Shown: positions 11,808 to 24,541 of the stretch, in pieces
How positions within the stretch are numbered: the stretch's first letter is position 1
Layout: each line of letters opens with the position of its first letter
DNA from: Candidatus Aminicenantes bacterium
Lineage (GTDB): Bacteria > Acidobacteriota > Aminicenantia > Aminicenantales > JAFGBC01
Assembly (NCBI GenBank): GCA_963702005.1
Contig: OY969696.1
Coordinates: 3,904,001-3,968,000 of the forward strand
Length of the DNA: 64,000 nt
Direction of reading: 5' to 3'
Program-made: the position numbers and the translations under genes
The notes under the pieces: generated by a model
Seen by the model: the letters and a program-made list of their open reading frames with translations, nothing else
Databases searched by the model: none
What the model was told of the DNA's origin: nothing

Positions 11808-13169
11808 TCAGACCAAACCCTGCTCCAGCATGGCCCTGGCAACCTTGAGGAAACCGCCTATATTGGCGCCATTGACATAATTTCCCGGGGTTCCGTATTG
11901 GTTGGCTGCTTCTACACAGGTTTTATGGATGCTCTTCATGATCTGGTGCAGGCGCTTGTCCACTTCCTCCCTCGACCAGCTCATCCTCATGCTGTTCTGG
12001 GACATTTCAAGACCCGAGGTAGACACGCCGCCGGCATTCGCCGCCTTTCCTGGGCCGAACAGGATTTTGGCATCAACAAATACCTCAATGCCTTCGGCCG
12101 TGGTCGGCATGTTCGCGCCCTCGGCGACTACATAGACTCCATTCTTGACCAGGTTTTTGGCGTCTTTGGCGTTGATCTCGTTCTGGGTGGCGCTTGGGAA
12201 GGCGCAATCCGCTTTATGGTTCCAGAGAGGATTAGTGTCCATATCGGGCGTCAGCGGCGTATAGGTCACGCCTTTGAACTTATCGGCATAATCCTTGATC
12301 CGGCCCCGGCGAACGTTCTTCAGGTCCATAATAAAATCCAGCTTCTTCGAATCAATGCCCGCGGGGTCATAAATATAGCCGTTGGAATCGGATAGCGTCA
12401 CCGCCTTGCCCCCGAGCTGGTTGATCTTCTCCACCGTGTACTGAGCCACATTACCGCTTCCCGAGACGAGGCAGCTCTTCCCTTCGAGGGTTTGATTTCT
12501 GGTCCCGAGCATTTCCGCGGCAAAATACACGGCCCCATACCCCGTTGCTTCCGGCCGGATGAGCGAGCCGCCCCAATCGAGTCCTTTGCCCGTCAGAACC
12601 CCGGTGACTTCATTCCGCAATTTTCTATATTGGCCGTAAAGGAAGCCGATCTCACGTCCGCCCACGCCGATATCGCCGGCGGGCACATCGGTATCAGGAC
12701 CGATGTGCCGGAAGAGCTCACTCATGAAGCTCTGGCAAAGGCGCATGACTTCGTTATCGCTCTTTCCCTTTGCGTCAAAATCACAACCGCCCTTGCCGCC
12801 GCCCATGGGCAGCGTGGTCAAGGAATTCTTAAACACCTGTTCAAAAGCAAGGAACTTCAGGATGCCCAAGTTGACGGTGGGATGAAAGCGCAGGCCGCCT
12901 TTATAGGGTCCGATCGCGCTGTTCATCTGGATCCTGTAGCCGCGATTGACGTGAATCTCCCCCGCGTCATCCATCCAGGCAACGCGGAACATGAGGACCC
13001 GCTCCGGCTCCGCGATCCGCTCGAAAATCTTGGCTTTTAGGTACTCGGGATGGCGTTCCAGAACCAAGGAGACGGAGCTGGCAACTTCATAAACGGCTTG
13101 ATGGAACTCGGGTTGCGCGGGGTTCTTGGCCTTGATTTCATCCATGAAATCTTTGACATAATTATTCAT
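11808..13169 (-). CDS. gdhA: NADP-specific glutamate dehydrogenase
   Basis: GPYKGGLRFH, EQVFKNSLT, GGGKGG, DVPAGD, RPEATGYG, SGSGNVA, KAANAGGV all intact. Confidence 0.95.
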   Translation of the reverse strand: MNNYVKDFMDEIKAKNPAQPEFHQAVYEVASSVSLVLERHPEYLKAKIFERIAEPERVLMFRVAWMDDAGEIHVNRGYRIQMNSAIGPYKGGLRFHPTVNLGILKFLAFEQVFKNSLTTLPMGGGKGGCDFDAKGKSDNEVMRLCQSFMSELFRHIGPDTDVPAGDIGVGGREIGFLYGQYRKLRNEVTGVLTGKGLDWGGSLIRPEATGYGAVYFAAEMLGTRNQTLEGKSCLVSGSGNVAQYTVEKINQLGGKAVTLSDSNGYIYDPAGIDSKKLDFIMDLKNVRRGRIKDYADKFKGVTYTPLTPDMDTNPLWNHKADCAFPSATQNEINAKDAKNLVKNGVYVVAEGANMPTTAEGIEVFVDAKILFGPGKAANAGGVSTSGLEMSQNSMRMSWSREEVDKRLHQIMKSIHKTCVEAANQYGTPGNYVNGANIGGFLKVARAMLEQGLV

Positions 13170-13374
13170 ATATGCTCCTTCGCAAAAAAACTTTCGGAGA
13201 TTATACTGTATAAATCTCCTTCATTTTAATAAATCAGAAATTTTATGGATTTATTTGGATAATATTAGGATTTGAATAAAAATATCGGCTTCTTTCCGGA
13301 CACAAACACTCCTTGACTTTTAAGGAAGCAAGAATTATTTTTGATTTAAGAACATATGAAAAAGGGATAAAACA
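13170..13374. promoter_or_regulatory. AT-rich divergent control region between the two gdh genes, with palindrome TTATAC-T-GTATAA
   Basis: Perfect palindrome 13201-13213 flanked by GAGA/TCTC; a TTGACT -35-like hexamer near 13313. Confidence 0.45.
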
Positions 13375-14661
13375 GTGGGCGACAGATCTTATAACACCTT
13401 CCTGATAGCTCAGGCTCAATTCGATAAGACGGCGGAATGGCTCGATCTTGACCCGCCGACACGTGAACTCCTGCGTTTGCCGATGAAAGAATATCAATTC
13501 CTGATACCTCTCCAGATGGATGACGGGAGGGTCCAGATATTCAGAGGTTTCCGGGTTGTCCATAACGACGCCCGAGGACCCGGTAAGGGGGGAATCCGGT
13601 TTCATCCCTACGAGACCATCGATACCATCCGGGCCCTGGCGATGTGGATGACATGGAAATGTGCTCTGATGAATATCCCTCTGGGCGGCAGCAGCGGCGG
13701 CATCGTCTGCGATCCCCATTTCCTAAGCCTCCGAGAACAGGAGCGGCTCTGCCGAAGCTGGATCCGAAAGCTCGCCAGGGATTTGGGACCTCAAGTCGAT
13801 GTCCCGGCTCCTGACATCATGGCCTATACTCAGCACATGCTTTGGATGCTCGACGAATACGAAACGATCCGGGGTGAGAAACTCCCCGGTTTCATAACCG
13901 GAAAACCCGTGGGAATGGGCGGCTCTCTGGGCAGGATAGAGGCGACAGGCTTCGGCCTTGTCTTTGCTCTGCGCGAGGCCTTGAAGGAGCTGAACATCCA
14001 GCCTGACGACACCACCGCGAGTATCCAGGGCTTCGGCAACGTGGCCCAGCATGCCAGCCGTCTTTTTGAACAGATCGGCGGAAAAGTGATTTGTATCGCC
14101 AGCTGGAATAATAAGGACGGAACCTCCTATTCTTACAAAAAAGAATCGGGAATAAGCCTCGAGGCCCTGGCCGGCATCACGGACCGCTTCGGGGATATCG
14201 ATAAAGAGAAAGCGGCGAAAATGGGCTGTGAGGTTCTGCCCGGAGAGGCCTGGCTGGCTCAGGAGGCCGATATCCTGATTCCAGCCGCGGTTGAGAATCA
14301 AATTACGGCCGAAAATGTGACGGCGATTCGCCCGCGCGTCAAAATTATCGCCGAGGGAGCGAACGGCCCGACCACGACCGAGGCCGATGATATGATCGCC
14401 GATCGAGGAATATTCGTTATCCCCGACATTCTCGCCAACGCCGGAGGCGTCACCTGCAGCTACTTTGAGCAGGTCCAGAGCAATATGAATTATTATTGGG
14501 AAAAGGATGAAGTCCTCGGCAAGCTGGATGTCAAGATGACTTCGGCCTTCAATTCTGTTCTGGAGTTCGCCAAGAAAAAAAAGCTTTCGATGAGGGGGGC
14601 GGCTTTTGCTATCGCGGTCGCCCGGGTGGCTCAAGCTTGCAAGGACCGAGGCTGGATCTAG
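13375..14661 (+). CDS. Glu/Leu/Phe/Val dehydrogenase-family protein lacking the catalytic Lys (possible regulatory pseudo-GDH)
   Basis: GPGKGGIRFH, MTWKC, PAPD, QGFGNVA and EGANGP present, but GGGKGG reads GGSSGG. Confidence 0.85.
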   Translation: MGDRSYNTFLIAQAQFDKTAEWLDLDPPTRELLRLPMKEYQFLIPLQMDDGRVQIFRGFRVVHNDARGPGKGGIRFHPYETIDTIRALAMWMTWKCALMNIPLGGSSGGIVCDPHFLSLREQERLCRSWIRKLARDLGPQVDVPAPDIMAYTQHMLWMLDEYETIRGEKLPGFITGKPVGMGGSLGRIEATGFGLVFALREALKELNIQPDDTTASIQGFGNVAQHASRLFEQIGGKVICIASWNNKDGTSYSYKKESGISLEALAGITDRFGDIDKEKAAKMGCEVLPGEAWLAQEADILIPAAVENQITAENVTAIRPRVKIIAEGANGPTTTEADDMIADRGIFVIPDILANAGGVTCSYFEQVQSNMNYYWEKDEVLGKLDVKMTSAFNSVLEFAKKKKLSMRGAAFAIAVARVAQACKDRGWI

Positions 14662-14718: not shown

Positions 14719-16476
14719 ATGCCTGAGTCTTGGACAAAATCGCTCTCCCTCCGCATCGCACCCTTCGACCGTCATTTTTTCACCGGCAAGGAAAGGTTCA
14801 CGGCCATCGGCCGCGGTGCCCTGGGAGGCAAAGCCCACGGATTGGCCCGGATAGCAAACATCCTCGAGGAAAAGCTGGCTCCCTCATTCCGACCCGACAT
14901 CGACATCACAATCCCGATCTTAACCGTGATCACAACGGAATTCTTCGATCTTTTCATGAAGCAGAACAACCTTCAAGACGTTGCTTTTTCCAGCCTCCGC
15001 GATGATCAAATTACCGCGACGTTCCAGCAGGCGGAGCTGCCGGCCCAGCTCGTCGGGGATCTGCGCGCTCTCATCGCCCGGGTCATCACGCCTTTGGCCA
15101 TTCGTTCTTCCAGCATTCTGGAAGACGCCATGTTCGAGCCCTTCGCCAGCGTCTATTCCACAAAAATGATCCCCAATAACCAACCGGATACCGACAGCCG
15201 GTTCAGGAGACTGGTCGAGGCGGTTAAATTTGTCTATGCCTCGACTTTCTTCAAAGATGCAAAAAATTACATTCAAGCGACAAGGCACACAACGGCCGAT
15301 GAGAAAATGGCGGTTATTATTCAGGAAGTCGTCGGCGTCCGGCACGGCCCGCGTTTCTATCCTCACATCTCGGGGGTTGCCCGTTCCTATAATTTTTATC
15401 CCATTGGACACGCCAAGCCCGCCGACGGCGTCGTCGACCTGGCGCTCGGCCTGGGGAAGACGATCGTCGATGACGGCATCGCCTGGTCTTATTCGCCGGC
15501 CTTCCCGCAGGCCAATCCGCCTTACATGACACTGGGCGACCTGTTGAACCAAGCCCAGCACGAATTCTGGGCCGTCAATATGGGCTCGCCTCCCGAGTAC
15601 AACCCCATCAAAGAGACGGAATACCTGATGAAATTCAGCCTGGAGGATGCCGAGGAAGATGGAAACCTTCGCTTTCTCGCCTCCACCTACAGGGCTCAAG
15701 ACGACAAGATTGTCTACGGCATCGCGGAGAAAGGTCCCCGGATTATCGACTTCGCACCGATCTTAAAATTCGATTTACTGCCCCTCAACAGAATGCTCAA
15801 ATGCCTTCTCAAGATCTGCCAGGAAGAGTTGGAAAGAATGGTAGAGGTCGAGTTCGCCCTGACCCTGGATGATCGCCAAGGCAGGCCGGCCCGATTTGGT
15901 TTCCTTCAAGTGAGGCCCATGGTCGTCTCGGAAGAAAAAGCGGAGCTTAGGCCGGCGGATTTGAGGGGAGAAAACGTGCTGGTGGCCACGGAGTCGGCGC
16001 TGGGGAATGGAATCGTCGGAAACATTCGCGACGTCATTTACATCAAGCCGGAGAAATTCAACGTTCAACATTCGGAAACCGTCGCGGCTGAGCTTGAATT
16101 GCTGAATCATCATTTGTTGCAACAAGGCCTTCCCTATCTTCTTATCGGCTTTGGCCGTTGGGGGACGTCCGACCCGCAGGCCGGCATCCCGGTTAAGTTC
16201 GGCCAAATCTGCGGCGCCAAAGTCATCGTCGAATCTGCCCTCCCCGAAGTGCCTTCCCTTCTCAGCCAGGGCTCTCATTTCTTCCACAACATCACCAGCT
16301 TCAAAGTCCTCTACCTGTCCGTCAGTCATTGGGACAAGGACAACATTGACTGGAGTTGGCTGAACAAACAGCAAGTCATCCAGGAAACAAAATTCGTGAG
16401 ACAGGTTAGACTTCCCTCCCCCCTGCATATTCAAGTCGACGGCCTGACCGGTCGTGGGGTGATCATCCATGAATGA
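14719..16476 (+). CDS. PPDK/PEP-synthase N-terminal ATP-grasp protein with a C-terminal His motif
   Basis: LGGKAHGL, IRSSSILED, MAVIIQ, SGVARS, GLGKTIV, EVEFA, LQVRP; GRWGT and SQGSHFF; no PEP/pyruvate barrel. Confidence 0.85.
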   Translation: MPESWTKSLSLRIAPFDRHFFTGKERFTAIGRGALGGKAHGLARIANILEEKLAPSFRPDIDITIPILTVITTEFFDLFMKQNNLQDVAFSSLRDDQITATFQQAELPAQLVGDLRALIARVITPLAIRSSSILEDAMFEPFASVYSTKMIPNNQPDTDSRFRRLVEAVKFVYASTFFKDAKNYIQATRHTTADEKMAVIIQEVVGVRHGPRFYPHISGVARSYNFYPIGHAKPADGVVDLALGLGKTIVDDGIAWSYSPAFPQANPPYMTLGDLLNQAQHEFWAVNMGSPPEYNPIKETEYLMKFSLEDAEEDGNLRFLASTYRAQDDKIVYGIAEKGPRIIDFAPILKFDLLPLNRMLKCLLKICQEELERMVEVEFALTLDDRQGRPARFGFLQVRPMVVSEEKAELRPADLRGENVLVATESALGNGIVGNIRDVIYIKPEKFNVQHSETVAAELELLNHHLLQQGLPYLLIGFGRWGTSDPQAGIPVKFGQICGAKVIVESALPEVPSLLSQGSHFFHNITSFKVLYLSVSHWDKDNIDWSWLNKQQVIQETKFVRQVRLPSPLHIQVDGLTGRGVIIHE

Positions 16477-19400
16477 GAACTCAAAGAATACCGATTCCGT
16501 GATCTGGTTTTTATCCGAGCGGGCCAAGGAATTGAATTGCCTCTACAAGATCGAAGAGCTTCTCAACAAGCCGGATGCCGATCTGGACGATATCTGCCGA
16601 GGCGTTATCGAAGCCATTCCGCCGGGCTGGCAGTATCCGGACATCTGTGTCGCCAAAATCAGCCTCGAGGGACACGCGGCTCAATCCCCGAATTTCAAAG
16701 AGACCGCTTGGGTTCAGAATGCCGATATCAAAGTCCAGGACAAACACATAGGGAGGTTGAGCATTTACTATATCGAAGAGATGCCTCACGCCGCTGACGG
16801 GCCTTTCTTGAAAGAGGAGACAAAGCTCCTCGGAACGATCGTGGACCGACTGGGCCACTACATCCTTTATACACGGATGAAACAGGCCTACCAGGAGTAC
16901 CAGACGGCCCGCCGGGGCGTTTCAGCGGATCGAGCGGACGAATGGCGTGTGGCCCTGAATTTTTTACGTCAGACCAACAAAAACCTCTTCCTGAATATAT
17001 CCCGCCGCATGCTCAATTTTCTCAGCTGGGGAGGCATCCAGGAAGCCGAAAAGCTTCTCCTCAAAACACTGGCAGGAAAGAAAGCCGGCGAGAGCTATTC
17101 GGAAGAAGAGAATTTCCCCGATCAAGTCAGGCCGCAGTCCTTCGATGAAAAAATCAGCGAAGAAACGTTCAACCTTGCCGCCCGGCATCTCAGCACCGGC
17201 CAAATCCTGGCCAACATCCACAAATGGATCCAAGAGGACCGGCTGAGCTTTTTAGTGGAGGTCACAAACAGAAATCTCTCCCTGGCTCAGGTCGTGGACG
17301 CCATCCGTCGCTACCACCATATCGCCGCCGAGGGCATCGCACTCCCTCCGGAAAGTCGAAGGGGCGTTCTTGTCTCCCTGATCCGACGTTTTCTCTCCGA
17401 ACAGCCGGAATTCATCACCACGGCCATCAAGAATATTGAAATCGACGACTTCTATGAGATCCTGGATCACATTATTTTTTCGCCGGAGAGCCAGGGAAGG
17501 TTGGGAGGAAAAAGCACCGGGCTTTTTTTGGCCAAGCATATCATCGAGAAATCGGCCGATTCCTTGAGCCATTTCAGCCCGATCAAGGTGCCGAAAACAT
17601 GGTATATCTCCTCGGAGGGCCTGCTGAGCTTTCTCTCCTATAATAATCTCAACGAGGTTGTTGAGCAAAAGTACAAAGATATCAACCAAGTTCGGCTGGA
17701 GTATCCTCATATCGTTCAGACATTTAAAAATTCTCAGTTCCCCACGCATATCGTCCAGGGACTCTCCATGGTTCTCGACGACTTCAAGGACCAGCCCATC
17801 ATCGTCCGCAGCTCCAGTCTGCTGGAAGATCGGATGGGATCTTCGTTTTCCGGAAAGTACAAGAGCCTGTTCTTGGCCAACCAAGGCAGCAAAGGGGAGC
17901 GTCTTGAAGCCCTCAAAGACGCCATCGCTGAAATCTATGCCTCCACCTATGGCCCCGATCCTATCAGCTACCGGTCGGAGCGGAATCTTCTTGATTTCGC
18001 GGAAGAGATGGGCATCATGATCCAAGAAGTCGTGGGTACGCGGGTCGGGGACTATTTTTTCCCCTCTTTTGCCGGAGTGGCTTTGAGCCGCAACGAGTTC
18101 CGCTGGTCGCCATGGATCAAACGCGAAGACGGCCTGCTGCGATTGGTCCCCGGGTTGGGGACAAGGGCGGTGGACAGAACCAGCGATGATTATTCTGTCA
18201 TGATCGCCCCGGGACAGGTCGGGCTCCGCGTTAATGTCAGCGCCGACGAGGTCATCCGCTACTCGCCCAAAAAAATGGACGTCATCAACTTGAAAACGAA
18301 CGGCTTCGAAACCATCGAAGCCAAAGACCTGCTCAGGCGATATGGCCATCAACTCCCCGCCGCCGATAAAATCGTCTCCCTCTATGACGGTCAGTGCTTG
18401 CGAAAACCGTTGGGCCGGACGATCGATTGGGAGAAGGACGATCTTGTCATCACCTTTGAAGGACTCATCGACAGCACCCCCTTCATTTCCCAACTCCGAG
18501 AGGTCATGCGGATCCTAAAAGAAAAACTCCAGTTTCCCGTGGACATCGAATTCGCTTCCGATGGAAAGAGTTTTTATCTTCTCCAATGCAGGATGCAAAG
18601 CTACCTGGAAGGCAGCGAGCCCGCTTATATCCCCAAGAACCTGCCCAAGGAAAAAATCGTGTTCCTGGCCAATCGTTTTATCTCCAACGGGCGCATTCCG
18701 GATATTACTCATATCGTCTATGTCGATCCGCAAAGCTACGATGAGCTTCCCAATCGCGAGATGCTTCTGGCCGTCGGCCGCGCCGTGGGAAAGCTGAACA
18801 AGCTCTTGCCGCGGCGCCGATTCATCCTGATGGGGCCCGGTCGTTGGGGAAGCCGGGGAGATATCAAGCTTGGAATCAAGGCGTCCTACTCCGATATCTC
18901 AAACACGGCGGTCCTGATCGAGATCGCCCGAAAGAAAGGGCATTATCTTCCCGACCTCTCTTTCGGCACCCACTTTTTCCAGGATCTTGTCGAAGGAGAA
19001 ATTCGCTATCTGCCGCTCTACCCCGATGAAAAGGGCTCTATCCTTAAGGAAGACTTTTTCAAAAAGTCAGCCAATATCCTTCCCCAAATCTTGCCCGAAT
19101 TTGCCGATCTTGCCGATACCATCAAGGTCATAGATATTCCCGGGAGCACGGATGGAATGGCCCTCCGCATTCTGATGAATGCCGACCTGGATGAAGCCGT
19201 GGGATTTCTTGTCAACCCGGAGGTCGAACCCCTCTCTCCGCTTCCCGGGAGAGAAAAAGAAAAGGGCAAGCCGGAGAACCATTGGGCCTGGCGGCTCGAG
19301 ATGGCTGAACATATCGCTTCGCAGCTTGACGCCGGGCGTTTCGGCGTTAAGGCCCTCTACATAATCGGCAGCGCCAAGAATGCCACGGCCGGCCCGCAAA

Positions 19401-19651
19401 GCGACATCGACCTCTTGATTCATTTTCAGGGAACGAAGTCCCAGCGCCGGGACCTGGTCTCCTGGCTGGAGGGGTGGAGCCTCTGCTTAGACGAGATGAA
19501 TTTCCAAAAAACGGGATATAAGAGCGGGGGACTTCTCGATATCCATTTCGTCACCGATGCGGATGTCGCTAAAAAGACGAGTCATGCGGCCAAGATCGGC
19601 GCGGTCACGGACGCGGCCCGACTCCTCCCGCTCAAAGAATTGGTCAAATAA
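16469..19651 (+). CDS. GAF-like sensor + PPDK-type ATP-grasp + His motif + minimal nucleotidyltransferase fusion protein
   Basis: N-terminal ERAKELNCLY..WQYP; LGGKSTGL, VRSSSLLED, FSGKYKS, GLGTRAV, DIEFA; SFGTHFF; C-terminal GSAKNATAGPQSDIDL (GS..DxD). Confidence 0.85.
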   Translation: MNENSKNTDSVIWFLSERAKELNCLYKIEELLNKPDADLDDICRGVIEAIPPGWQYPDICVAKISLEGHAAQSPNFKETAWVQNADIKVQDKHIGRLSIYYIEEMPHAADGPFLKEETKLLGTIVDRLGHYILYTRMKQAYQEYQTARRGVSADRADEWRVALNFLRQTNKNLFLNISRRMLNFLSWGGIQEAEKLLLKTLAGKKAGESYSEEENFPDQVRPQSFDEKISEETFNLAARHLSTGQILANIHKWIQEDRLSFLVEVTNRNLSLAQVVDAIRRYHHIAAEGIALPPESRRGVLVSLIRRFLSEQPEFITTAIKNIEIDDFYEILDHIIFSPESQGRLGGKSTGLFLAKHIIEKSADSLSHFSPIKVPKTWYISSEGLLSFLSYNNLNEVVEQKYKDINQVRLEYPHIVQTFKNSQFPTHIVQGLSMVLDDFKDQPIIVRSSSLLEDRMGSSFSGKYKSLFLANQGSKGERLEALKDAIAEIYASTYGPDPISYRSERNLLDFAEEMGIMIQEVVGTRVGDYFFPSFAGVALSRNEFRWSPWIKREDGLLRLVPGLGTRAVDRTSDDYSVMIAPGQVGLRVNVSADEVIRYSPKKMDVINLKTNGFETIEAKDLLRRYGHQLPAADKIVSLYDGQCLRKPLGRTIDWEKDDLVITFEGLIDSTPFISQLREVMRILKEKLQFPVDIEFASDGKSFYLLQCRMQSYLEGSEPAYIPKNLPKEKIVFLANRFISNGRIPDITHIVYVDPQSYDELPNREMLLAVGRAVGKLNKLLPRRRFILMGPGRWGSRGDIKLGIKASYSDISNTAVLIEIARKKGHYLPDLSFGTHFFQDLVEGEIRYLPLYPDEKGSILKEDFFKKSANILPQILPEFADLADTIKVIDIPGSTDGMALRILMNADLDEAVGFLVNPEVEPLSPLPGREKEKGKPENHWAWRLEMAEHIASQLDAGRFGVKALYIIGSAKNATAGPQSDIDLLIHFQGTKSQRRDLVSWLEGWSLCLDEMNFQKTGYKSGGLLDIHFVTDADVAKKTSHAAKIGAVTDAARLLPLKELVK

Positions 19652-20507
19652 GCTCTTTGCTGGCGGCGTCTAATTGCTCCAGCTGAAAACGAATCAGAGC
19701 AAGCTCCGGCCCGTCGTGCGCGGCCGAGAAGCAGTGTGTCCGGCCGATGCGATCCCTCCAGGAAGCGGAGAGTCTCGCCGCCTCATGGACATGCCCGTGA
19801 AGCGTCAGAAACGGCTGTCGAGCCTCGATGAAGCGGCGGATAGCGATGCTGCCCAGATGATGATCGAGGGGGACGTAATCGATCATCTGTCCTTTGAGGC
19901 AAGAAAGGTCGAGCTTCGTTTGATAGGGAGGCGAATGGAAAAGAAAGACGGCCTTGGTCAGGTCTTCATTCTTCGTCAACCGTTCAAGGTCCTCCTTGAT
20001 GGTTGAATATTTGCTCTCCCGCTCGGAAACCGGAACGGACCGCAGTCCCTCTTCGGGGGATATTGTTCCAGGATCGATGTAGCGAGAGACGTCATAGCGC
20101 TCCCAGTCTTTCAGTCGGAAAGGAGTCGGTGGAACATAAGCATAGCCGTAGAGGGGAAAACCGTCGAAAACCACCTTGCGGTTATGAATATACTCCCAGA
20201 CGCCCTGGACGGCCGCATCCAGGACCGCGGCTTCTTCAAATCGGCCGTCGTCATTGCCCATGACCAGAAAGATCCTGGGATAGTCCGTCAGGAGCTCCTG
20301 ACGCAAAGCAAGGAAATTCTTCACAAGAAAGCCGTTGAAAAAATCTTGCTGGCTAAGACTCAAAGAGTCGCGAGCGGGCCGAGCCAAGGGCAAAAAATCG
20401 CCGCCGATGAAGACGGCCTTCGGCTTCTCAAGGGAAATAGCCCTAAAAAGCTTCTGATAGCGGCGCAGATCGCCGTGGAGATCGGAGACGAAAAAGCAAT
20501 TCCCCAC
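19644..20507 (-). CDS. Calcineurin-like metallophosphoesterase (Icc-related)
   Basis: SDLHG, GGD, GNDD, FHSPP, HGHVHE; likely GTG start at 20507. Confidence 0.85.
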   Translation of the reverse strand: MGNCFFVSDLHGDLRRYQKLFRAISLEKPKAVFIGGDFLPLARPARDSLSLSQQDFFNGFLVKNFLALRQELLTDYPRIFLVMGNDDGRFEEAAVLDAAVQGVWEYIHNRKVVFDGFPLYGYAYVPPTPFRLKDWERYDVSRYIDPGTISPEEGLRSVPVSERESKYSTIKEDLERLTKNEDLTKAVFLFHSPPYQTKLDLSCLKGQMIDYVPLDHHLGSIAIRRFIEARQPFLTLHGHVHEAARLSASWRDRIGRTHCFSAAHDGPELALIRFQLEQLDAASKELI

Positions 20508-20575
20508 GAAAAAATTATAAGCCAAAATTACTAAAAGTGACAATCGGCACGGATGAACCCGGCACCCGACCTCTG

Positions 20576-21301
20576 TCAAGCGTCTTCTTCATCCCCGAAC
20601 TTATAGCCGACGCCTCGAACGGTTTGGATATATTTCTTGGCCCCGCTCAGCTTTTTTCGAAGACCGGTCATATGATAATCGACGACGCGCTCCGTGATGG
20701 GATAGCCGTCCTCGCGGACATGATCAAGGATGAATGATCGGGTGAAAACCTGATTGGGCTTCCCGGCCATCAGGGCGAGAATCTCGAATTCTGTCTTGGA
20801 GAGATGGACCTTTTTGCCGTTGACGCGGACCTCGTAGGCTCCTCGATCGATGATCATATTGCCTATTTCCAGCCTTGTTTTTTCTTTTTCCGTCGATTTC
20901 TTCATCCTTCGCAGCAGAGCCTGGATGCGGGCCAGCAGGATTTCCGGCTCAAAAGGCTTGGTGATGTAGTCGTCGGCGAACTCCCTTAAGCCGGCGACAA
21001 CGTCTTCGACCTGCTTCTTGGCTGTGACCATGATGATCAAGGCATTGGATGTCCTAGAGTCCTTTTTCAGGATGCCGCAAACTTTCAACCCATCAATCCC
21101 GGGAAGGATAAGGTCCAGGAGAATAAGATCCGGCCTCTCTCGTCTGGCCAGCTGTAGGGCTTCCTCGCCGCTCTGGGCGCCGAGAACTTGGTATCCTTCT
21201 TTCCAGAGGATAAAAGAGAGGCTATTTTGAAGGTTGACATCGTCCTCAACGCACAATATCTTGATCTTGGCGCCAGGCTGAACTTCGCTTGGAGACTTCA
21301 T
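20576..21301 (-). CDS. OmpR/PhoB-family response regulator (no canonical histidine kinase nearby)
   Basis: VEDD, LLDLILPGIDG, DDYITKPF, winged helix ending IQTVRGVGY; start MKSP at 21301. Confidence 0.92.
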   Translation of the reverse strand: MKSPSEVQPGAKIKILCVEDDVNLQNSLSFILWKEGYQVLGAQSGEEALQLARRERPDLILLDLILPGIDGLKVCGILKKDSRTSNALIIMVTAKKQVEDVVAGLREFADDYITKPFEPEILLARIQALLRRMKKSTEKEKTRLEIGNMIIDRGAYEVRVNGKKVHLSKTEFEILALMAGKPNQVFTRSFILDHVREDGYPITERVVDYHMTGLRKKLSGAKKYIQTVRGVGYKFGDEEDA

Positions 21302-21435
21302 TCTATTACTGCCGTTCTTCAAGAAACAAAGAATATTGTAATTAAATCCAAACAAAAAGCAAATAAATCCATAACAATTCGCGCCGTCTACGATAAAAAA
21401 CATCGGAGAAAAAAATAGAGCTAGGCGGGAACGGG

Positions 21436-22881
21436 TCAGCGGCTTCGGGCTCTTTCCTGATAGACTTTGATCCATTTTTCGACGATTTGAATCAGCGTCC
21501 CTCTCAACTCGGCAGCGCTTCCGTGGATGGGGCGGAGCTCCTCGGCAAGTTCCGGATATTCTTTTCGATCCAGCCAGGACGAAATGATATCGTTATCCGA
21601 ATAGGGCTGAATGACGCCCGCGTCCAGAGTTTTAAGACACATCCAGAGCTCGCGCAGGTTGAATATCTTGTGTCCGTCGATGATCAGCGGGATCCGCTTG
21701 ATCCGGGCCATCTCCCTCCGGAAATCTCTCTTCAACAGGGTGATGAGCTGCCGGCCCCGGCTTCTTCTCGGGCGCAGGCGGTCGCCGAGTTCCTGAAAAC
21801 TGTGCATATAAAGCCACGTGGAGAATTTATCTTTTTCCCCGTAGCTTTCCAAAATATCCCTGAGCCGTCGGCCCGGCGGGCAGTCTTTCTCGGCTTCCGA
21901 CAGGATCTGGCAAATTCCGTGAATGTCTTTAGCCCGATGCAATTCCCGCCCGTCTTCGTCATAGATGAGAAAATCTCCCAGCCCCGTGAAATTGAGAATA
22001 TAATCCTTAAGCTTCTCCAGGCTTCCCGGATCGCCCTTGGGAAGAATAAAGCCGAGGTCGCTTAATTCATGAGCCTCTTTCGCCTTAGAGGCGATAATCA
22101 CGGGAATCCGAGGATAGGCGCTTTTCACCAGGCGGATCAGGTCGCGGCCGGCATCCGTCTGGAGTTCGTTGTGTTTGGGAAAATAGATATCCGCGATCAG
22201 ACAAACGACGTCATCGCCGTGCCCGCTTGATAAAGACCCTTTGTCCTTGATCTGAGATTCATCCTCAACGCCAAAAATGAATCGAAGACTCTCCTCGTAG
22301 GTTCGAGTGATCATCACATCCGCACGTTGGCCGATAATACTATAAAGGACGGGGAGGAATTGAGAGAACCAGCGCGGCTCATCATCGACGATATGAAAAA
22401 TAAACCGCCGGGCGTTAGAATATTTCTTGATATTGAGCAAATCCTCCGCCGCCCGGACGACGGAGGCAAGAATTCTCTCGGGCGCGCATTCGTTCCGGTT
22501 GACGGCAAAGATGAGGTCGGCCTTGGTCACATAGGGATACCTCTGGGCGGCAGCTTGAGGGGGGGAACACTGGATGAAAACTTGGGAGGAGAGAAGAACA
22601 AGAACAGCGTCTGGGTTGTGAACGCGGATTGTATTCGTATCGAGAATCGCCAGGGCGGTATCATCAAACAGAAATACACAGGCCTTTTCATAAGCGCGGC
22701 TCATAACCGACGGCGGATCATGGAGAACTTCCGTCTCAAGCCAGGGCATATTTTTCCCCAAAATTTCCAGGCCCTCGCGGATCCGTGAATCAGCGGCAAA
22801 AATGACCGCCTTTTTCATCCTGACCGGGTTGATAATCCGAGGAATGAAGGGATGCTCTCTGTTCCCGCTTCGGCTATTCAT
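21436..22881 (-). CDS. Receiver-like domain protein with C-terminal helical S-x-WL repeats
   Basis: FHIVDDEP, LIADIYFP and IPVIIAS resemble a receiver fold; DKFSTWL and DIISSWL repeats. Confidence 0.6.
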   Translation of the reverse strand: MNSRSGNREHPFIPRIINPVRMKKAVIFAADSRIREGLEILGKNMPWLETEVLHDPPSVMSRAYEKACVFLFDDTALAILDTNTIRVHNPDAVLVLLSSQVFIQCSPPQAAAQRYPYVTKADLIFAVNRNECAPERILASVVRAAEDLLNIKKYSNARRFIFHIVDDEPRWFSQFLPVLYSIIGQRADVMITRTYEESLRFIFGVEDESQIKDKGSLSSGHGDDVVCLIADIYFPKHNELQTDAGRDLIRLVKSAYPRIPVIIASKAKEAHELSDLGFILPKGDPGSLEKLKDYILNFTGLGDFLIYDEDGRELHRAKDIHGICQILSEAEKDCPPGRRLRDILESYGEKDKFSTWLYMHSFQELGDRLRPRRSRGRQLITLLKRDFRREMARIKRIPLIIDGHKIFNLRELWMCLKTLDAGVIQPYSDNDIISSWLDRKEYPELAEELRPIHGSAAELRGTLIQIVEKWIKVYQERARSR

Positions 22882-24541
22882 TTTCTAAAACGACTTCGCA
22901 GCGTTGTTTGAGACAGTCCGCATAGACCGTCACCGGCCCCGGGAAAGACAAGACACCGAGGACGCTATCGGGCTGGGAACAGGAAAAAAGCCAGGGGTCG
23001 AAGGTATCCTGCATGGGCATGATATAGCCATAAATGATGTTGTTGCCCGCCAGGTTCGTCAGAAAATGCGTTCCCTGGGTTCCATACATCCTGGTCTGCA
23101 GTCTTTTTTGATCCTCATTAAAGCCGCCTTGAATCATATACAGAAAATGACTGCCGTAGACTCCTCCGGTTAAGCTCTCCTCTTCCGGCAAAGGTTCCGA
23201 CCGTCCCTCCACATCCACTCCGTATTCGAAAATAGCCGCCGCCTGATCCACGTCTTTATACTCAACGAAGATGCCCCAGTCTTTGTTTCGGCTTCCGAGA
23301 CGGCCCGGCACAATCAAGATATATTTCTCGTTCCGGCTCGCCATGTCTTGGTTGATCTGGGCGATTTTCTTGCGGACGACGGGCTGGAACTCTTTCTTAT
23401 AAATAAACGGAGATACGACGAGCGCATGTTTGATGTTCCTTTTAATCCCATGTCCCTGGGCATTATTGATGGCGAGATAGGTATGAAGGACGGACGGGGG
23501 GATCTGGATGGAGTCCAACTTCAATTCAGGCAGCTGAGTCAACTGGACAATGTGAAAAGTCCCGTCTCCTTTGTCCTTCCTGGAAAAATCGAGGTTGAAG
23601 ACAAATTCGATCAGAAACTGAGAAGAGATACGAGAGGCGATGATCTCCATGATTTCCACGAGGCCTGTCTTGAATCCGAAATGGTTATTCTGGATGAGAT
23701 CTTCTATGGTGATGAGGTTGTTCCGGATTCCCAACAGCTTGATCTTATGGTAATTGGCGAACCGGACATGAAGCTTCTTCATGGTTTCCAGTTCTTCGCC
23801 CTTGAGCTCCCTATTTTTGGTCATGTCCAGAGCATAAAAAAATTGCTGGCCGCTTCCAATTCGCAAGAGACGGAGGGGGATAGGATTGGAGATCGTGGCC
23901 ATGGAGATAACGGGAAAATCGTCCAAGACGGTGGCATAGCCGTGTCCGAAAGCGATCCGGGCAAAGCCTTCGCTGGGATTCTGGTTCTTGAGGGCGTGCG
24001 GGAAGAAGGAAACGGCGACCCCGGAAATATAAGGATAATAAACGGGGCCGGCGTAGGTGTCATCGAATATTCCCGGAATGGGATTGATGACGATGGCCAT
24101 TTTCTCTCGGCTCGAGGCGGGTTGTTTCCTGAGAAAATCATTGTAGATATGGGTCACGGCTTGGATGACCTGAGAAAGTCTCACTTCAGGATCAGGGTGA
24201 TTGTTGGGCAGCATGAAGGACGCGTTCTCCCCGGCATGAATGGAACCTCCGGCCTGCGCCGTCGGACCCGCCTCATTTGTCGCGGAAGAGCGAATTCCCA
24301 AAGGAACGTCCGTCAATTCTCCAAGAATCGAGAGCACGACATTTTGTTCCTCGTCCCCAAATCTTCCGTCATTGGCGAGGAAACTATCAAAGAAGGAAGT
24401 GGTCAGGATATAGGTTTTCAACTTGCTGACCTTGGGAAGGGAAAGTTGGTTGATCTTAACGAGTCCGGCTCCCTTCCCGCCCAGAGAACCCGTCCCGTAG
24501 ATTTTGACAGCCTCGGCTATTTGGGCCATGGGAATATTCAT
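22874..24541 (-). CDS. Divergent PPDK-type ATP-grasp protein
   Basis: GSLGGKGAGL, GIRSSA, SGVAVS, IEFVF, PGRLGS; two His motifs YGSHFL and QGTHFL; several ATP-grasp residues altered. Confidence 0.7.
   Translation of the reverse strand: MNIPMAQIAEAVKIYGTGSLGGKGAGLVKINQLSLPKVSKLKTYILTTSFFDSFLANDGRFGDEEQNVVLSILGELTDVPLGIRSSATNEAGPTAQAGGSIHAGENASFMLPNNHPDPEVRLSQVIQAVTHIYNDFLRKQPASSREKMAIVINPIPGIFDDTYAGPVYYPYISGVAVSFFPHALKNQNPSEGFARIAFGHGYATVLDDFPVISMATISNPIPLRLLRIGSGQQFFYALDMTKNRELKGEELETMKKLHVRFANYHKIKLLGIRNNLITIEDLIQNNHFGFKTGLVEIMEIIASRISSQFLIEFVFNLDFSRKDKGDGTFHIVQLTQLPELKLDSIQIPPSVLHTYLAINNAQGHGIKRNIKHALVVSPFIYKKEFQPVVRKKIAQINQDMASRNEKYILIVPGRLGSRNKDWGIFVEYKDVDQAAAIFEYGVDVEGRSEPLPEEESLTGGVYGSHFLYMIQGGFNEDQKRLQTRMYGTQGTHFLTNLAGNNIIYGYIMPMQDTFDPWLFSCSQPDSVLGVLSFPGPVTVYADCLKQRCEVVLENE

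Follow-up and report, generated by a model that had tools for sequence, protein, structure and literature searches.

A 64,000-nucleotide (nt) stretch of contig OY969696.1 from the Candidatus Aminicenantes bacterium assembly GCA_963702005.1 (forward-strand positions 3,904,001 to 3,968,000; hereafter the window, to whose numbering the coordinates below refer unless a locus is named) carries a gene for a homolog of glutamate dehydrogenase (GDH) in which the catalytic Lys of the GGGKGG motif is replaced by Ser. The gene is the first of an operon and is followed on the same strand by genes for two dikinase-like ATP-grasp proteins of 585 and 1060 amino acid residues (aa), while a canonical NADP-type gdhA is transcribed divergently from it (Table 1). 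An earlier reading of the window made from its letters only, referred to as the sequence-only reading, had described the protein as a GDH paralog that lost its "Schiff-base lysine" and may act as a sensor feeding the ATP-grasp proteins encoded downstream. Here, we describe the distribution of the Lys loss, the residues that are kept or replaced together with it, its evolutionary history, and the genes with which the Lys-less GDH is associated, and we weigh the roles that such a protein may play.

Loss of the catalytic lysine in the window protein

The open reading frame (ORF) starts with GTG and codes for 428 aa without an internal stop, in agreement with the sequence-only reading, which had called it intact. 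The product matches both domains of the Glu/Leu/Phe/Val dehydrogenase superfamily over their full lengths: PF02812 (ELFV_dehydrog_N) at residues 36-163 (E = 6.2e-50; 168.7 bits against a cut-off of 25.3) and PF00208 (ELFV_dehydrog) at residues 182-426 (E = 3.3e-68; 230.4 bits against a cut-off of 23.4). Its top NCBIfam match, GdhA_Arch, reached 429 bits and thus fell below the equivalog cut-off of 750. The closest solved structure is Thermococcus GDH (1euz, E = 2.5e-112), and the short hexameric GDHs of Thermococcus, Pyrococcus, Thermotoga, and Bacillus (1euz, 1gtm, 1bvu, 2tmg, and 3k8z) share with the window protein the same two-domain fold over the full length (E = 1e-104 to 1e-112) and the motifs that bind the carboxylates and the dinucleotide. 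They differ from it in the GGGKGG Lys, which is Ser in the window protein, and in the canonical Q62 and T188, which are hydrophobic there.

In the alignment with 1euz, PYGGGKGGI faces PLGGSSGGI, and nucleotides 13681-13701 read CTG GGC GGC AGC AGC GGC GGC (L103 G104 G105 S106 S107 G108 G109), which confirms the replacement of GGGKGG by GGSSGG noticed in the sequence-only reading. The ligand-binding motifs that it listed as remaining are likewise all found, namely KGGIR (K71), TWKC (K95), PAPD, whose D147 is the general-base Asp, and GFGNVA (G219 and G221); the carboxylate binders R187 and S362 are present as well. On the basis of motif alignments, we take positions 71, 95, 107, 147, 187, and 362 to be equivalent to K89, K113, K125 (the catalytic Lys), D165 (the general base), R205, and S380 of clostridial GDH. 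The term "Schiff-base lysine" is an old label for the catalytic Lys of GDHs. The equivalent Lys80 of leucine dehydrogenase is described as a general base in a review (PMC12018205).

Recurrence of the lysine loss among relatives

Contigs from two other runs, X2 and X3, which belong to different studies, span 13681-13701 with the AGC AGC codons unchanged, and their nearest differences from the window are changes at synonymous positions, 13662 and 13680. Among the best 120 database matches (70-100% identity), 97 lack the catalytic Lys; their motif pairs are SS (51 sequences, including P0071, whose motif was read by eye), SH (24), SN (11), SY (5), ST (4), and AS (2), while the 23 Lys-bearing matches have SK (21) or GK (2). 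Of the matches in 151 genomes that share the order of the window genome (one relative is labeled Candidatus Aminicenantales by NCBI), the best 28, which are at least 72% identical and come from six families, are all Lys-less. The motif was also read in 64 further same-order matches: 56 have the Lys, 4 are fragments without the motif, and 4 (L143, L145, L171, and L174) are Lys-less. L174 is a partial second copy in G102, a genome already among the 28, and was not recounted, so that a Lys-less copy is present in 31 of the 151 genomes. Canonical GDH was found in every Lys-less genome checked.

The scan of genome contigs yielded relatives of at most 71% identity, and orthologs were taken from a separate genome search. 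The 14 orthologs compared are each exactly 428 codons long with no indels, and the ratio of nonsynonymous to synonymous substitution rates (dN/dS, Nei-Gojobori) is 0.057-0.117 for the 15 closest of their 91 pairs. Because of its wide recurrence, the Lys loss lies far beyond chance or error. The check that the sequence-only reading had itself proposed, namely whether the loss recurs in orthologs, therefore came out in its favor, and the outcome that it had named as fatal, a substitution confined to this genome through decay or sequencing error, is ruled out by this recurrence and by the X2 and X3 contigs.

Residues kept and residues rebuilt

We aligned 228 sequences of the subfamily (125 Lys-less and 103 Lys-bearing), consisting of database matches and locus translations without de-replication. 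The carboxylate binders are kept in nearly all Lys-less sequences (K71, 125/125; K95, 124/125; R187, 123/125; S362, 123/125), and N355, G219, and G221 are kept in all 125. Position 147 is Glu in 56 of the 125 Lys-less sequences versus 3 of the 103 Lys-bearing ones; the window protein retains Asp.

The two groups differ most clearly in columns 62, 98, 99, 188, 352, and 411. Position 62 is Gln in 85 of 87 Lys-bearing relatives and Leu, Val, or Ile in 122 of the 123 Lys-less sequences whose clade includes the window protein. Positions 98 and 99, both Val in Lys-bearing sequences, are Leu and Met/Leu/Ile in this clade; position 188, Thr in 75 of 87 Lys-bearing relatives, is largely hydrophobic; and Phe352 and Tyr411 are replaced by Ile and Phe, respectively. 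Q62V and T188L recur in L045, which lost the Lys independently. L047, another independent loss, and P0123, a basal member of the clade, retain Q62 and have lost T188, a pattern which suggests that the Lys was lost first and its surroundings changed afterward.

A scan of the clade for a migrated Lys found a gain of a basic residue only at positions 247 and 319, both within the ELFV_dehydrog span, and no nearby Lys seems to have replaced the lost one. Position 247 (14113-14115) is Lys in 106 of the 123 clade members and a mixture of Asn, Ala, and Lys in Lys-bearing relatives; lying just past the Rossmann GxGxxA strand, Lys247 could mirror a shift in cofactor preference. The overall pattern is that of an abandoned catalytic center in a protein whose remaining parts, both pockets among them, stay under strong selection.

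Evolutionary history of the loss

Trees were built with the trait column and the co-varying columns included. With FastTree, all 123 window-related Lys-less sequences formed one clade without a Lys-bearing member (node support 0.62; parent node 0.95). With IQ-TREE (quick mode, LG+C20), the clade was again recovered (51/51), with support of 90 in the 101-row tree and 86 in the 113-row tree by the Shimodaira-Hasegawa-like approximate likelihood ratio test (SH-aLRT). Within this main clade, position 107 changed a further eight times among Ser, Asn, His, Thr, and Tyr and never reverted to Lys, a pattern expected from a site freed of catalysis. On these trees, the window's clade goes back to a single Lys loss with no regain.

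Parsimony on the 113-row tree counts four changes between presence and absence of the Lys. Two of the independent losses lie on long branches: L045 (Lys to Glu), from a metagenome-assembled genome (MAG) labeled only "bacterium", and L047 (Lys to Asn), from an Ignavibacteria MAG. Another is a second same-order clade formed by L143, L145, and L171 (SH-aLRT 99), whose members are 80-90% identical to one another and which Lys-bearing sequences separate from the main clade. In L199, the locus of the L145 member, a canonical GDH lies about 6 kb downstream of the Lys-less GDH.

Proteins encoded downstream of the Lys-less GDH

The Lys-less GDH gene is separated by 57 nt from the 585-aa gene, which in turn overlaps the 1060-aa gene by 8 nt (16469-16476); this overlap suggests translational coupling of the two paralog genes. 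The order gdhA, Lys-less GDH, 585-aa, and 1060-aa gene is kept in all 20 orthologous loci fetched, and the link to two downstream ATP-grasp proteins made in the sequence-only reading is therefore borne out as a conserved operon. The four genes beyond the 1060-aa gene, coding for a phosphoesterase, an OmpR/PhoB-type regulator, and two proteins without a family, are kept in most of the 20 loci.

The AlphaFold2 (AF2) model of the 585-aa protein has a predicted local distance difference test score (pLDDT) of 87.4, and its top Foldseek match is rifampin phosphotransferase (5hv3, E = 6e-14); HpeI, phosphoenolpyruvate (PEP) synthase, and PPDK are matched as well. Both downstream proteins share the PPDK_N ATP-grasp fold with these dikinase-type enzymes. 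In contrast to them, the two proteins carry a common C-terminal module in which the motifs GRWG and G-[ST]-H-F-F are invariant, the His of the latter being H520 in the 585-aa and H835 in the 1060-aa protein; the 1060-aa protein additionally has a GAF-like sensor and a nucleotidyltransferase. Pfam detected neither the swivel nor the TIM-barrel domain of PEP-utilizing enzymes in either protein. No solved structure of a close relative turned up when the PDB was searched by sequence with both proteins (one marginal match for P0004, E = 0.0099; none for P0003), and a protein atlas placed them only in uncharacterized "PEP/pyruvate-binding" clusters.

The 1060-aa protein consists of the GAF-like domain (residues 1 to about 140), a PPDK_N ATP-grasp domain (344-721), the His module with GTH835FF, and a C-terminal nucleotidyltransferase whose GS and DxD residues (GS..DxD near 967-981) are at least 90% conserved. 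Residues 1-150 were modeled with a pLDDT of 91.2; Foldseek matched them to GAF domains, first 4g3k (Nlh1, E = 8e-4) and then NifA, PtsP, and CodY, with modest similarity (template modeling score 0.58). This GAF-like domain has one invariant Cys.

A domain of the same kind (KELxCLY, with the invariant Cys) occurs in a histidine kinase encoded directly after a canonical GDH (L073:11396-13054, plus strand) and in a 343-aa protein (L046:7280-8311, minus strand) whose C-terminus resembles, by eye, a LuxR-type helix-turn-helix. In both loci, the gene is flanked by one for a protein that looks, again by eye, like a sigma-54-type activator.

The GDH-dikinase module beyond the Lys-less clade

In the window, a short-type GDH gene is directly followed by a same-strand gene for a PPDK_N/His-module protein. 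We looked for this module around 80 GDH loci from other phyla, 78 of which have the Lys. Among the 72 loci with at least 1.5 kb of downstream sequence, a 585- or 1060-type gene directly follows the GDH gene in 49, and a 1060-type gene lies within 3.5 kb in 51. In ten further loci from the same order, nine of which hold a canonical GDH while the tenth, L143, is Lys-less, the 1060-type gene directly follows the GDH gene in nine. As judged from this distribution, the module is older than the Lys loss, present in many phyla, and usually built with a canonical GDH. The 585-aa protein is encoded directly downstream in all four independent Lys-less lineages, compared with 29 of the 72 other-phyla loci and none of the nine same-order loci for Lys-bearing GDHs. 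A tie between Lys loss and the presence of the 585-aa protein is therefore suggestive, with four events to go by.

The genome of the window has a second such module outside the window (G000:C1:1125912-1129400; loci L003 and L139). Its GDH is canonical, with GGGKGG, and 62% identical to the window protein; a gene for a 1060-type protein (open frame of about 1005 aa, 44% identity) comes immediately after it, with no 585-aa gene and no gdhA nearby. Three of the four PPDK_N proteins of this genome stand behind a short-type GDH.

The neighboring gdhA and other features of the locus

The divergent gdhA matches NF006929 with 747.8 bits (cut-off 536) and reads PMGGGKGG; the sequence-only reading was thus correct that the neighbor keeps the motif. 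It belongs to another GDH subfamily than the window protein (30-36% identity by tblastn) and adjoins the Lys-less gene in 20 of the 20 main-clade loci fetched. An NADP-type gdhA is also present in the L045 and L047 loci and accompanies 6 of the 78 Lys-bearing loci from other phyla and none of the nine from the same order. A rule that the Lys is lost only where an NADP-type gdhA adjoins was dropped, since the second clade (L143, L145/L199, and L171/L200) has no gdhA in the flanks fetched.

The intergenic region contains a sigma-70-like promoter and a conserved block with three GGAT(T) units spaced in a phase of about 11 nt (Table 1). This block is a candidate site for a regulator, and it is a guess that the OmpR/PhoB-type regulator acts there. 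The genes for the 481-aa and 555-aa proteins travel with the module as a pair; in L132 and L134, they lie beyond gdhA on its other side. In the assemblies of some relatives, the coding sequence of gdhA or of the 585-aa gene runs through two or three frames (L118:10429-11785, L124:300-1658, L124:3170-4889, and L126:7026-8932), which probably reflects assembly indels rather than real breaks.

Table 1. Features of the window and Lys-less GDH genes of the second clade (coordinates with an L prefix refer to other loci)
Feature	Position	Strand	Basis
Canonical NADP-type gdhA, 453 aa, divergently transcribed	11808..13169	-	Pfam, NCBIfam, PMGGGKGG motif
Conserved A/T-rich block between the divergent promoters, candidate regulator site	13246..13285	.	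Alignment of 13 intergenic regions
Sigma-70-like promoter of the operon, TTGACT-17-TATTTT	13313..13341	+	Scan; both hexamers conserved in 13 aligned intergenic regions
Lys-less GDH homolog, 428 aa, first gene of the operon	13375..14661	+	ORF, Pfam, PDB 1euz match, dN/dS
V62, second-shell position	13558..13560	+	Column comparison of Lys-bearing and Lys-less sequences
Codons AGC AGC (S106 S107); S107 at the catalytic-Lys position of GGGKGG	13690..13695	+	Sequence and 1euz alignment
D147, general-base Asp of PAPD, kept	13813..13815	+	Motif and alignment
585-aa dikinase-like protein: PPDK_N ATP-grasp and C-terminal module with invariant His (GSH520FF)	14719..16476	+	Pfam, alignment, AF2, Foldseek
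1060-aa protein: GAF-like sensor, linker, PPDK_N, His module, nucleotidyltransferase	16469..19651	+	Pfam, alignment, AF2, Foldseek
Calcineurin-like metallophosphoesterase, conserved neighbor of the module	19644..20579	-	Pfam
OmpR/PhoB-type response regulator	20576..21475	-	Pfam and NCBIfam; conserved in most orthologous loci
481-aa gene, no family (weak DUF5752 match, E = 0.099)	21436..22881	-	Pfam; conserved with the module
555-aa remote PPDK_N-like paralog	22874..24541	-	Pfam (E = 0.0017); tblastn, 23-25% to the 585-aa protein
Second-clade Lys-less GDH	L143:8996-10276	-	Heads GDH-585-1060-phosphoesterase module
Second-clade Lys-less GDH (L145/L199)	L199:1250-2530	+	Heads GDH-585-1060-phosphoesterase module
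Second-clade Lys-less GDH (L171/L200)	L200:9051-10325	+	Heads GDH-585-1060-phosphoesterase module

Discussion

From the observed loss of the Lys, its conservation, the pattern of kept and replaced residues, and the synteny, we infer, with a chance of being right that we put at about even, that the Lys-less GDH is a non-catalytic, ligand-binding partner of the GDH-linked dikinase-like module. The protein would be a folded member of the family of short hexameric GDHs and under strong selection. With its catalytic Lys lost and the polar surroundings rebuilt, it would no longer catalyze the usual reaction of glutamate and 2-oxoglutarate fast enough to be of use, and it would still bind a C5 dicarboxylate and NAD(P)(H). 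In favor of a loss of activity, mutation of the equivalent Lys80 in leucine dehydrogenase leaves 1.5% activity, and clostridial GDH D165S loses 1e5-fold, according to a review (PMC12018205). The protein would be kept for the non-catalytic role of GDH in an old module, as a docking partner, a ligand-loaded receptor, or a modification target. In this module, GDH would work with the dikinase-like ATP-grasp/His-module proteins encoded after it, one of which has a GAF-like sensor and a nucleotidyltransferase, and the dehydrogenation of glutamate would be left to another GDH, here the divergent gdhA.

Thermus thermophilus has a GdhA described in PMC9570180 as a catalytically inactive regulatory subunit of a GdhA/GdhB hetero-hexamer, and the sequence-only reading cited this precedent correctly. 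As reported in PMC13400623, VadK (Rv1127c) is a regulatory kinase derived from PPDK, and it offers a precedent for a regulatory role that the downstream proteins might have. Our literature searches on the Lys-less GDH clade returned no relevant paper.

Several observations weigh against a non-catalytic, ligand-binding partner. By analogy with leucine dehydrogenase mutants, the protein may retain about 1% of activity. The 1060-aa protein has a GAF-like sensor of its own, which makes a sensor role for GDH unnecessary. Two of the three members of the second clade have lost K95 (to Glu) and N330 (to Ser), and P0071 in the main clade lacks K95 and R187; ligand binding is thus not always maintained, and the K95 loss of the second clade speaks against ligand sensing as a property common to Lys-less GDHs. 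The same clade has gdhA adjacent in none of its three loci, although the upstream flank of one of them is just 1.25 kb long. Finally, two genomes of the same genus as the window genome showed no Lys-less copy: G012 (92% complete) has only a 63% canonical match, and G003 (83% complete) has no match at all.

Taken together, the residue pattern and the operon link put forward in the sequence-only reading hold, as does the recurrence for which it had asked, whereas its proposal that the GDH feeds the ATP-grasp proteins found no support. The module predates the Lys loss and normally contains a catalytic GDH, and in view of the GAF-like domain of the 1060-aa protein, the GDH need not be the sensor.

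The protein might instead be a slow or conditional GDH in which free ammonia or another base takes the place of the Lys, as in chemical rescue. In leucine dehydrogenase, the 1.5% activity left in Lys80 mutants rises to 20% with 1 M ammonia (PMC12018205), and the window protein has all substrate and cofactor binders as well as D147. However, the drift of position 107 among five residues, the loss of Q62 and T188, and the Glu found at the general-base position in 56 of 125 sequences point to an abandoned rather than a tuned catalytic center, and a canonical gdhA lies next door. We therefore regard a slow GDH as unlikely.

Just as unlikely, in our estimate, is an oxidoreductase with a new function on a C5 dicarboxylate without ammonia chemistry, one that would, for example, convert 2-oxoglutarate to 2-hydroxyglutarate or reduce a preformed imine supplied by the ATP-grasp proteins. 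Selection on the dicarboxylate and dinucleotide pockets, the confinement of the changes to residues that handle water and ammonia, and the polar, hydrogen-bond-donating nature of all main-clade residues at position 107 would fit such an enzyme. One would expect a newly acquired catalytic residue not to vary, though, and both position 107 and the Asp or Glu at 147 do; moreover, the second clade erodes K95 and N330, and the conserved neighbors include no pathway genes for such a product.

A regulatory subunit of the Thermus type, which would assemble with a catalytic GDH, either the adjacent GdhA or the 428-aa paralog, into hetero-hexamers and tune the activity of that GDH, seems slightly less probable still. 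In its favor are the inactive GdhA of Thermus, as that source describes it a GDH paralog kept for regulation like the one proposed here, and the constant presence of gdhA beside the main-clade genes. Nevertheless, the Thermus partner is described as a paralog of the same type, whereas the conserved partners of the window protein are the dikinase-like genes, and the adjacent GdhA is from a different subfamily and encoded on the opposite strand. A close canonical paralog of 428 aa is absent from the complete genomes G017 and G023, and in the second Lys-less clade, gdhA does not adjoin the Lys-less gene.

A decaying pseudogene or a sequencing error, for which the missing Lys alone speaks, is already refuted by the identical codons in two other runs, the loss common to most of the best matches, the 428 intact codons, and a dN/dS of about 0.1, and we leave it practically no probability.

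Beyond a non-catalytic partner in this one operon, we tentatively consider a wider scheme, which we find possible though less likely than not to be right, in which the GDH hexamer would act either as a receptor loaded with a metabolite or as a docking platform within a widespread carbon/nitrogen signaling device composed of a GAF-like sensor, dikinase-like ATP-grasp proteins, the His module, a nucleotidyltransferase, and a phosphoesterase, and in which the Lys-less clades would be its natural "dead-receptor" versions. If this is true, dead-receptor GDHs arose at least four times, always in modules with the 585-aa protein, and the role of GDH in the device is separable from catalysis. The main Lys-less clade is large, under selection, and part of a common uncultured lineage of sediments and wetlands, and annotating its members as "glutamate dehydrogenase" would mislead metabolic reconstructions. 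GDH stands where carbon and nitrogen metabolism meet, and the Lys-less GDH may serve as a natural separation-of-function allele for the part that GDH plays in the cross-phylum GDH/dikinase-like/nucleotidyltransferase module.

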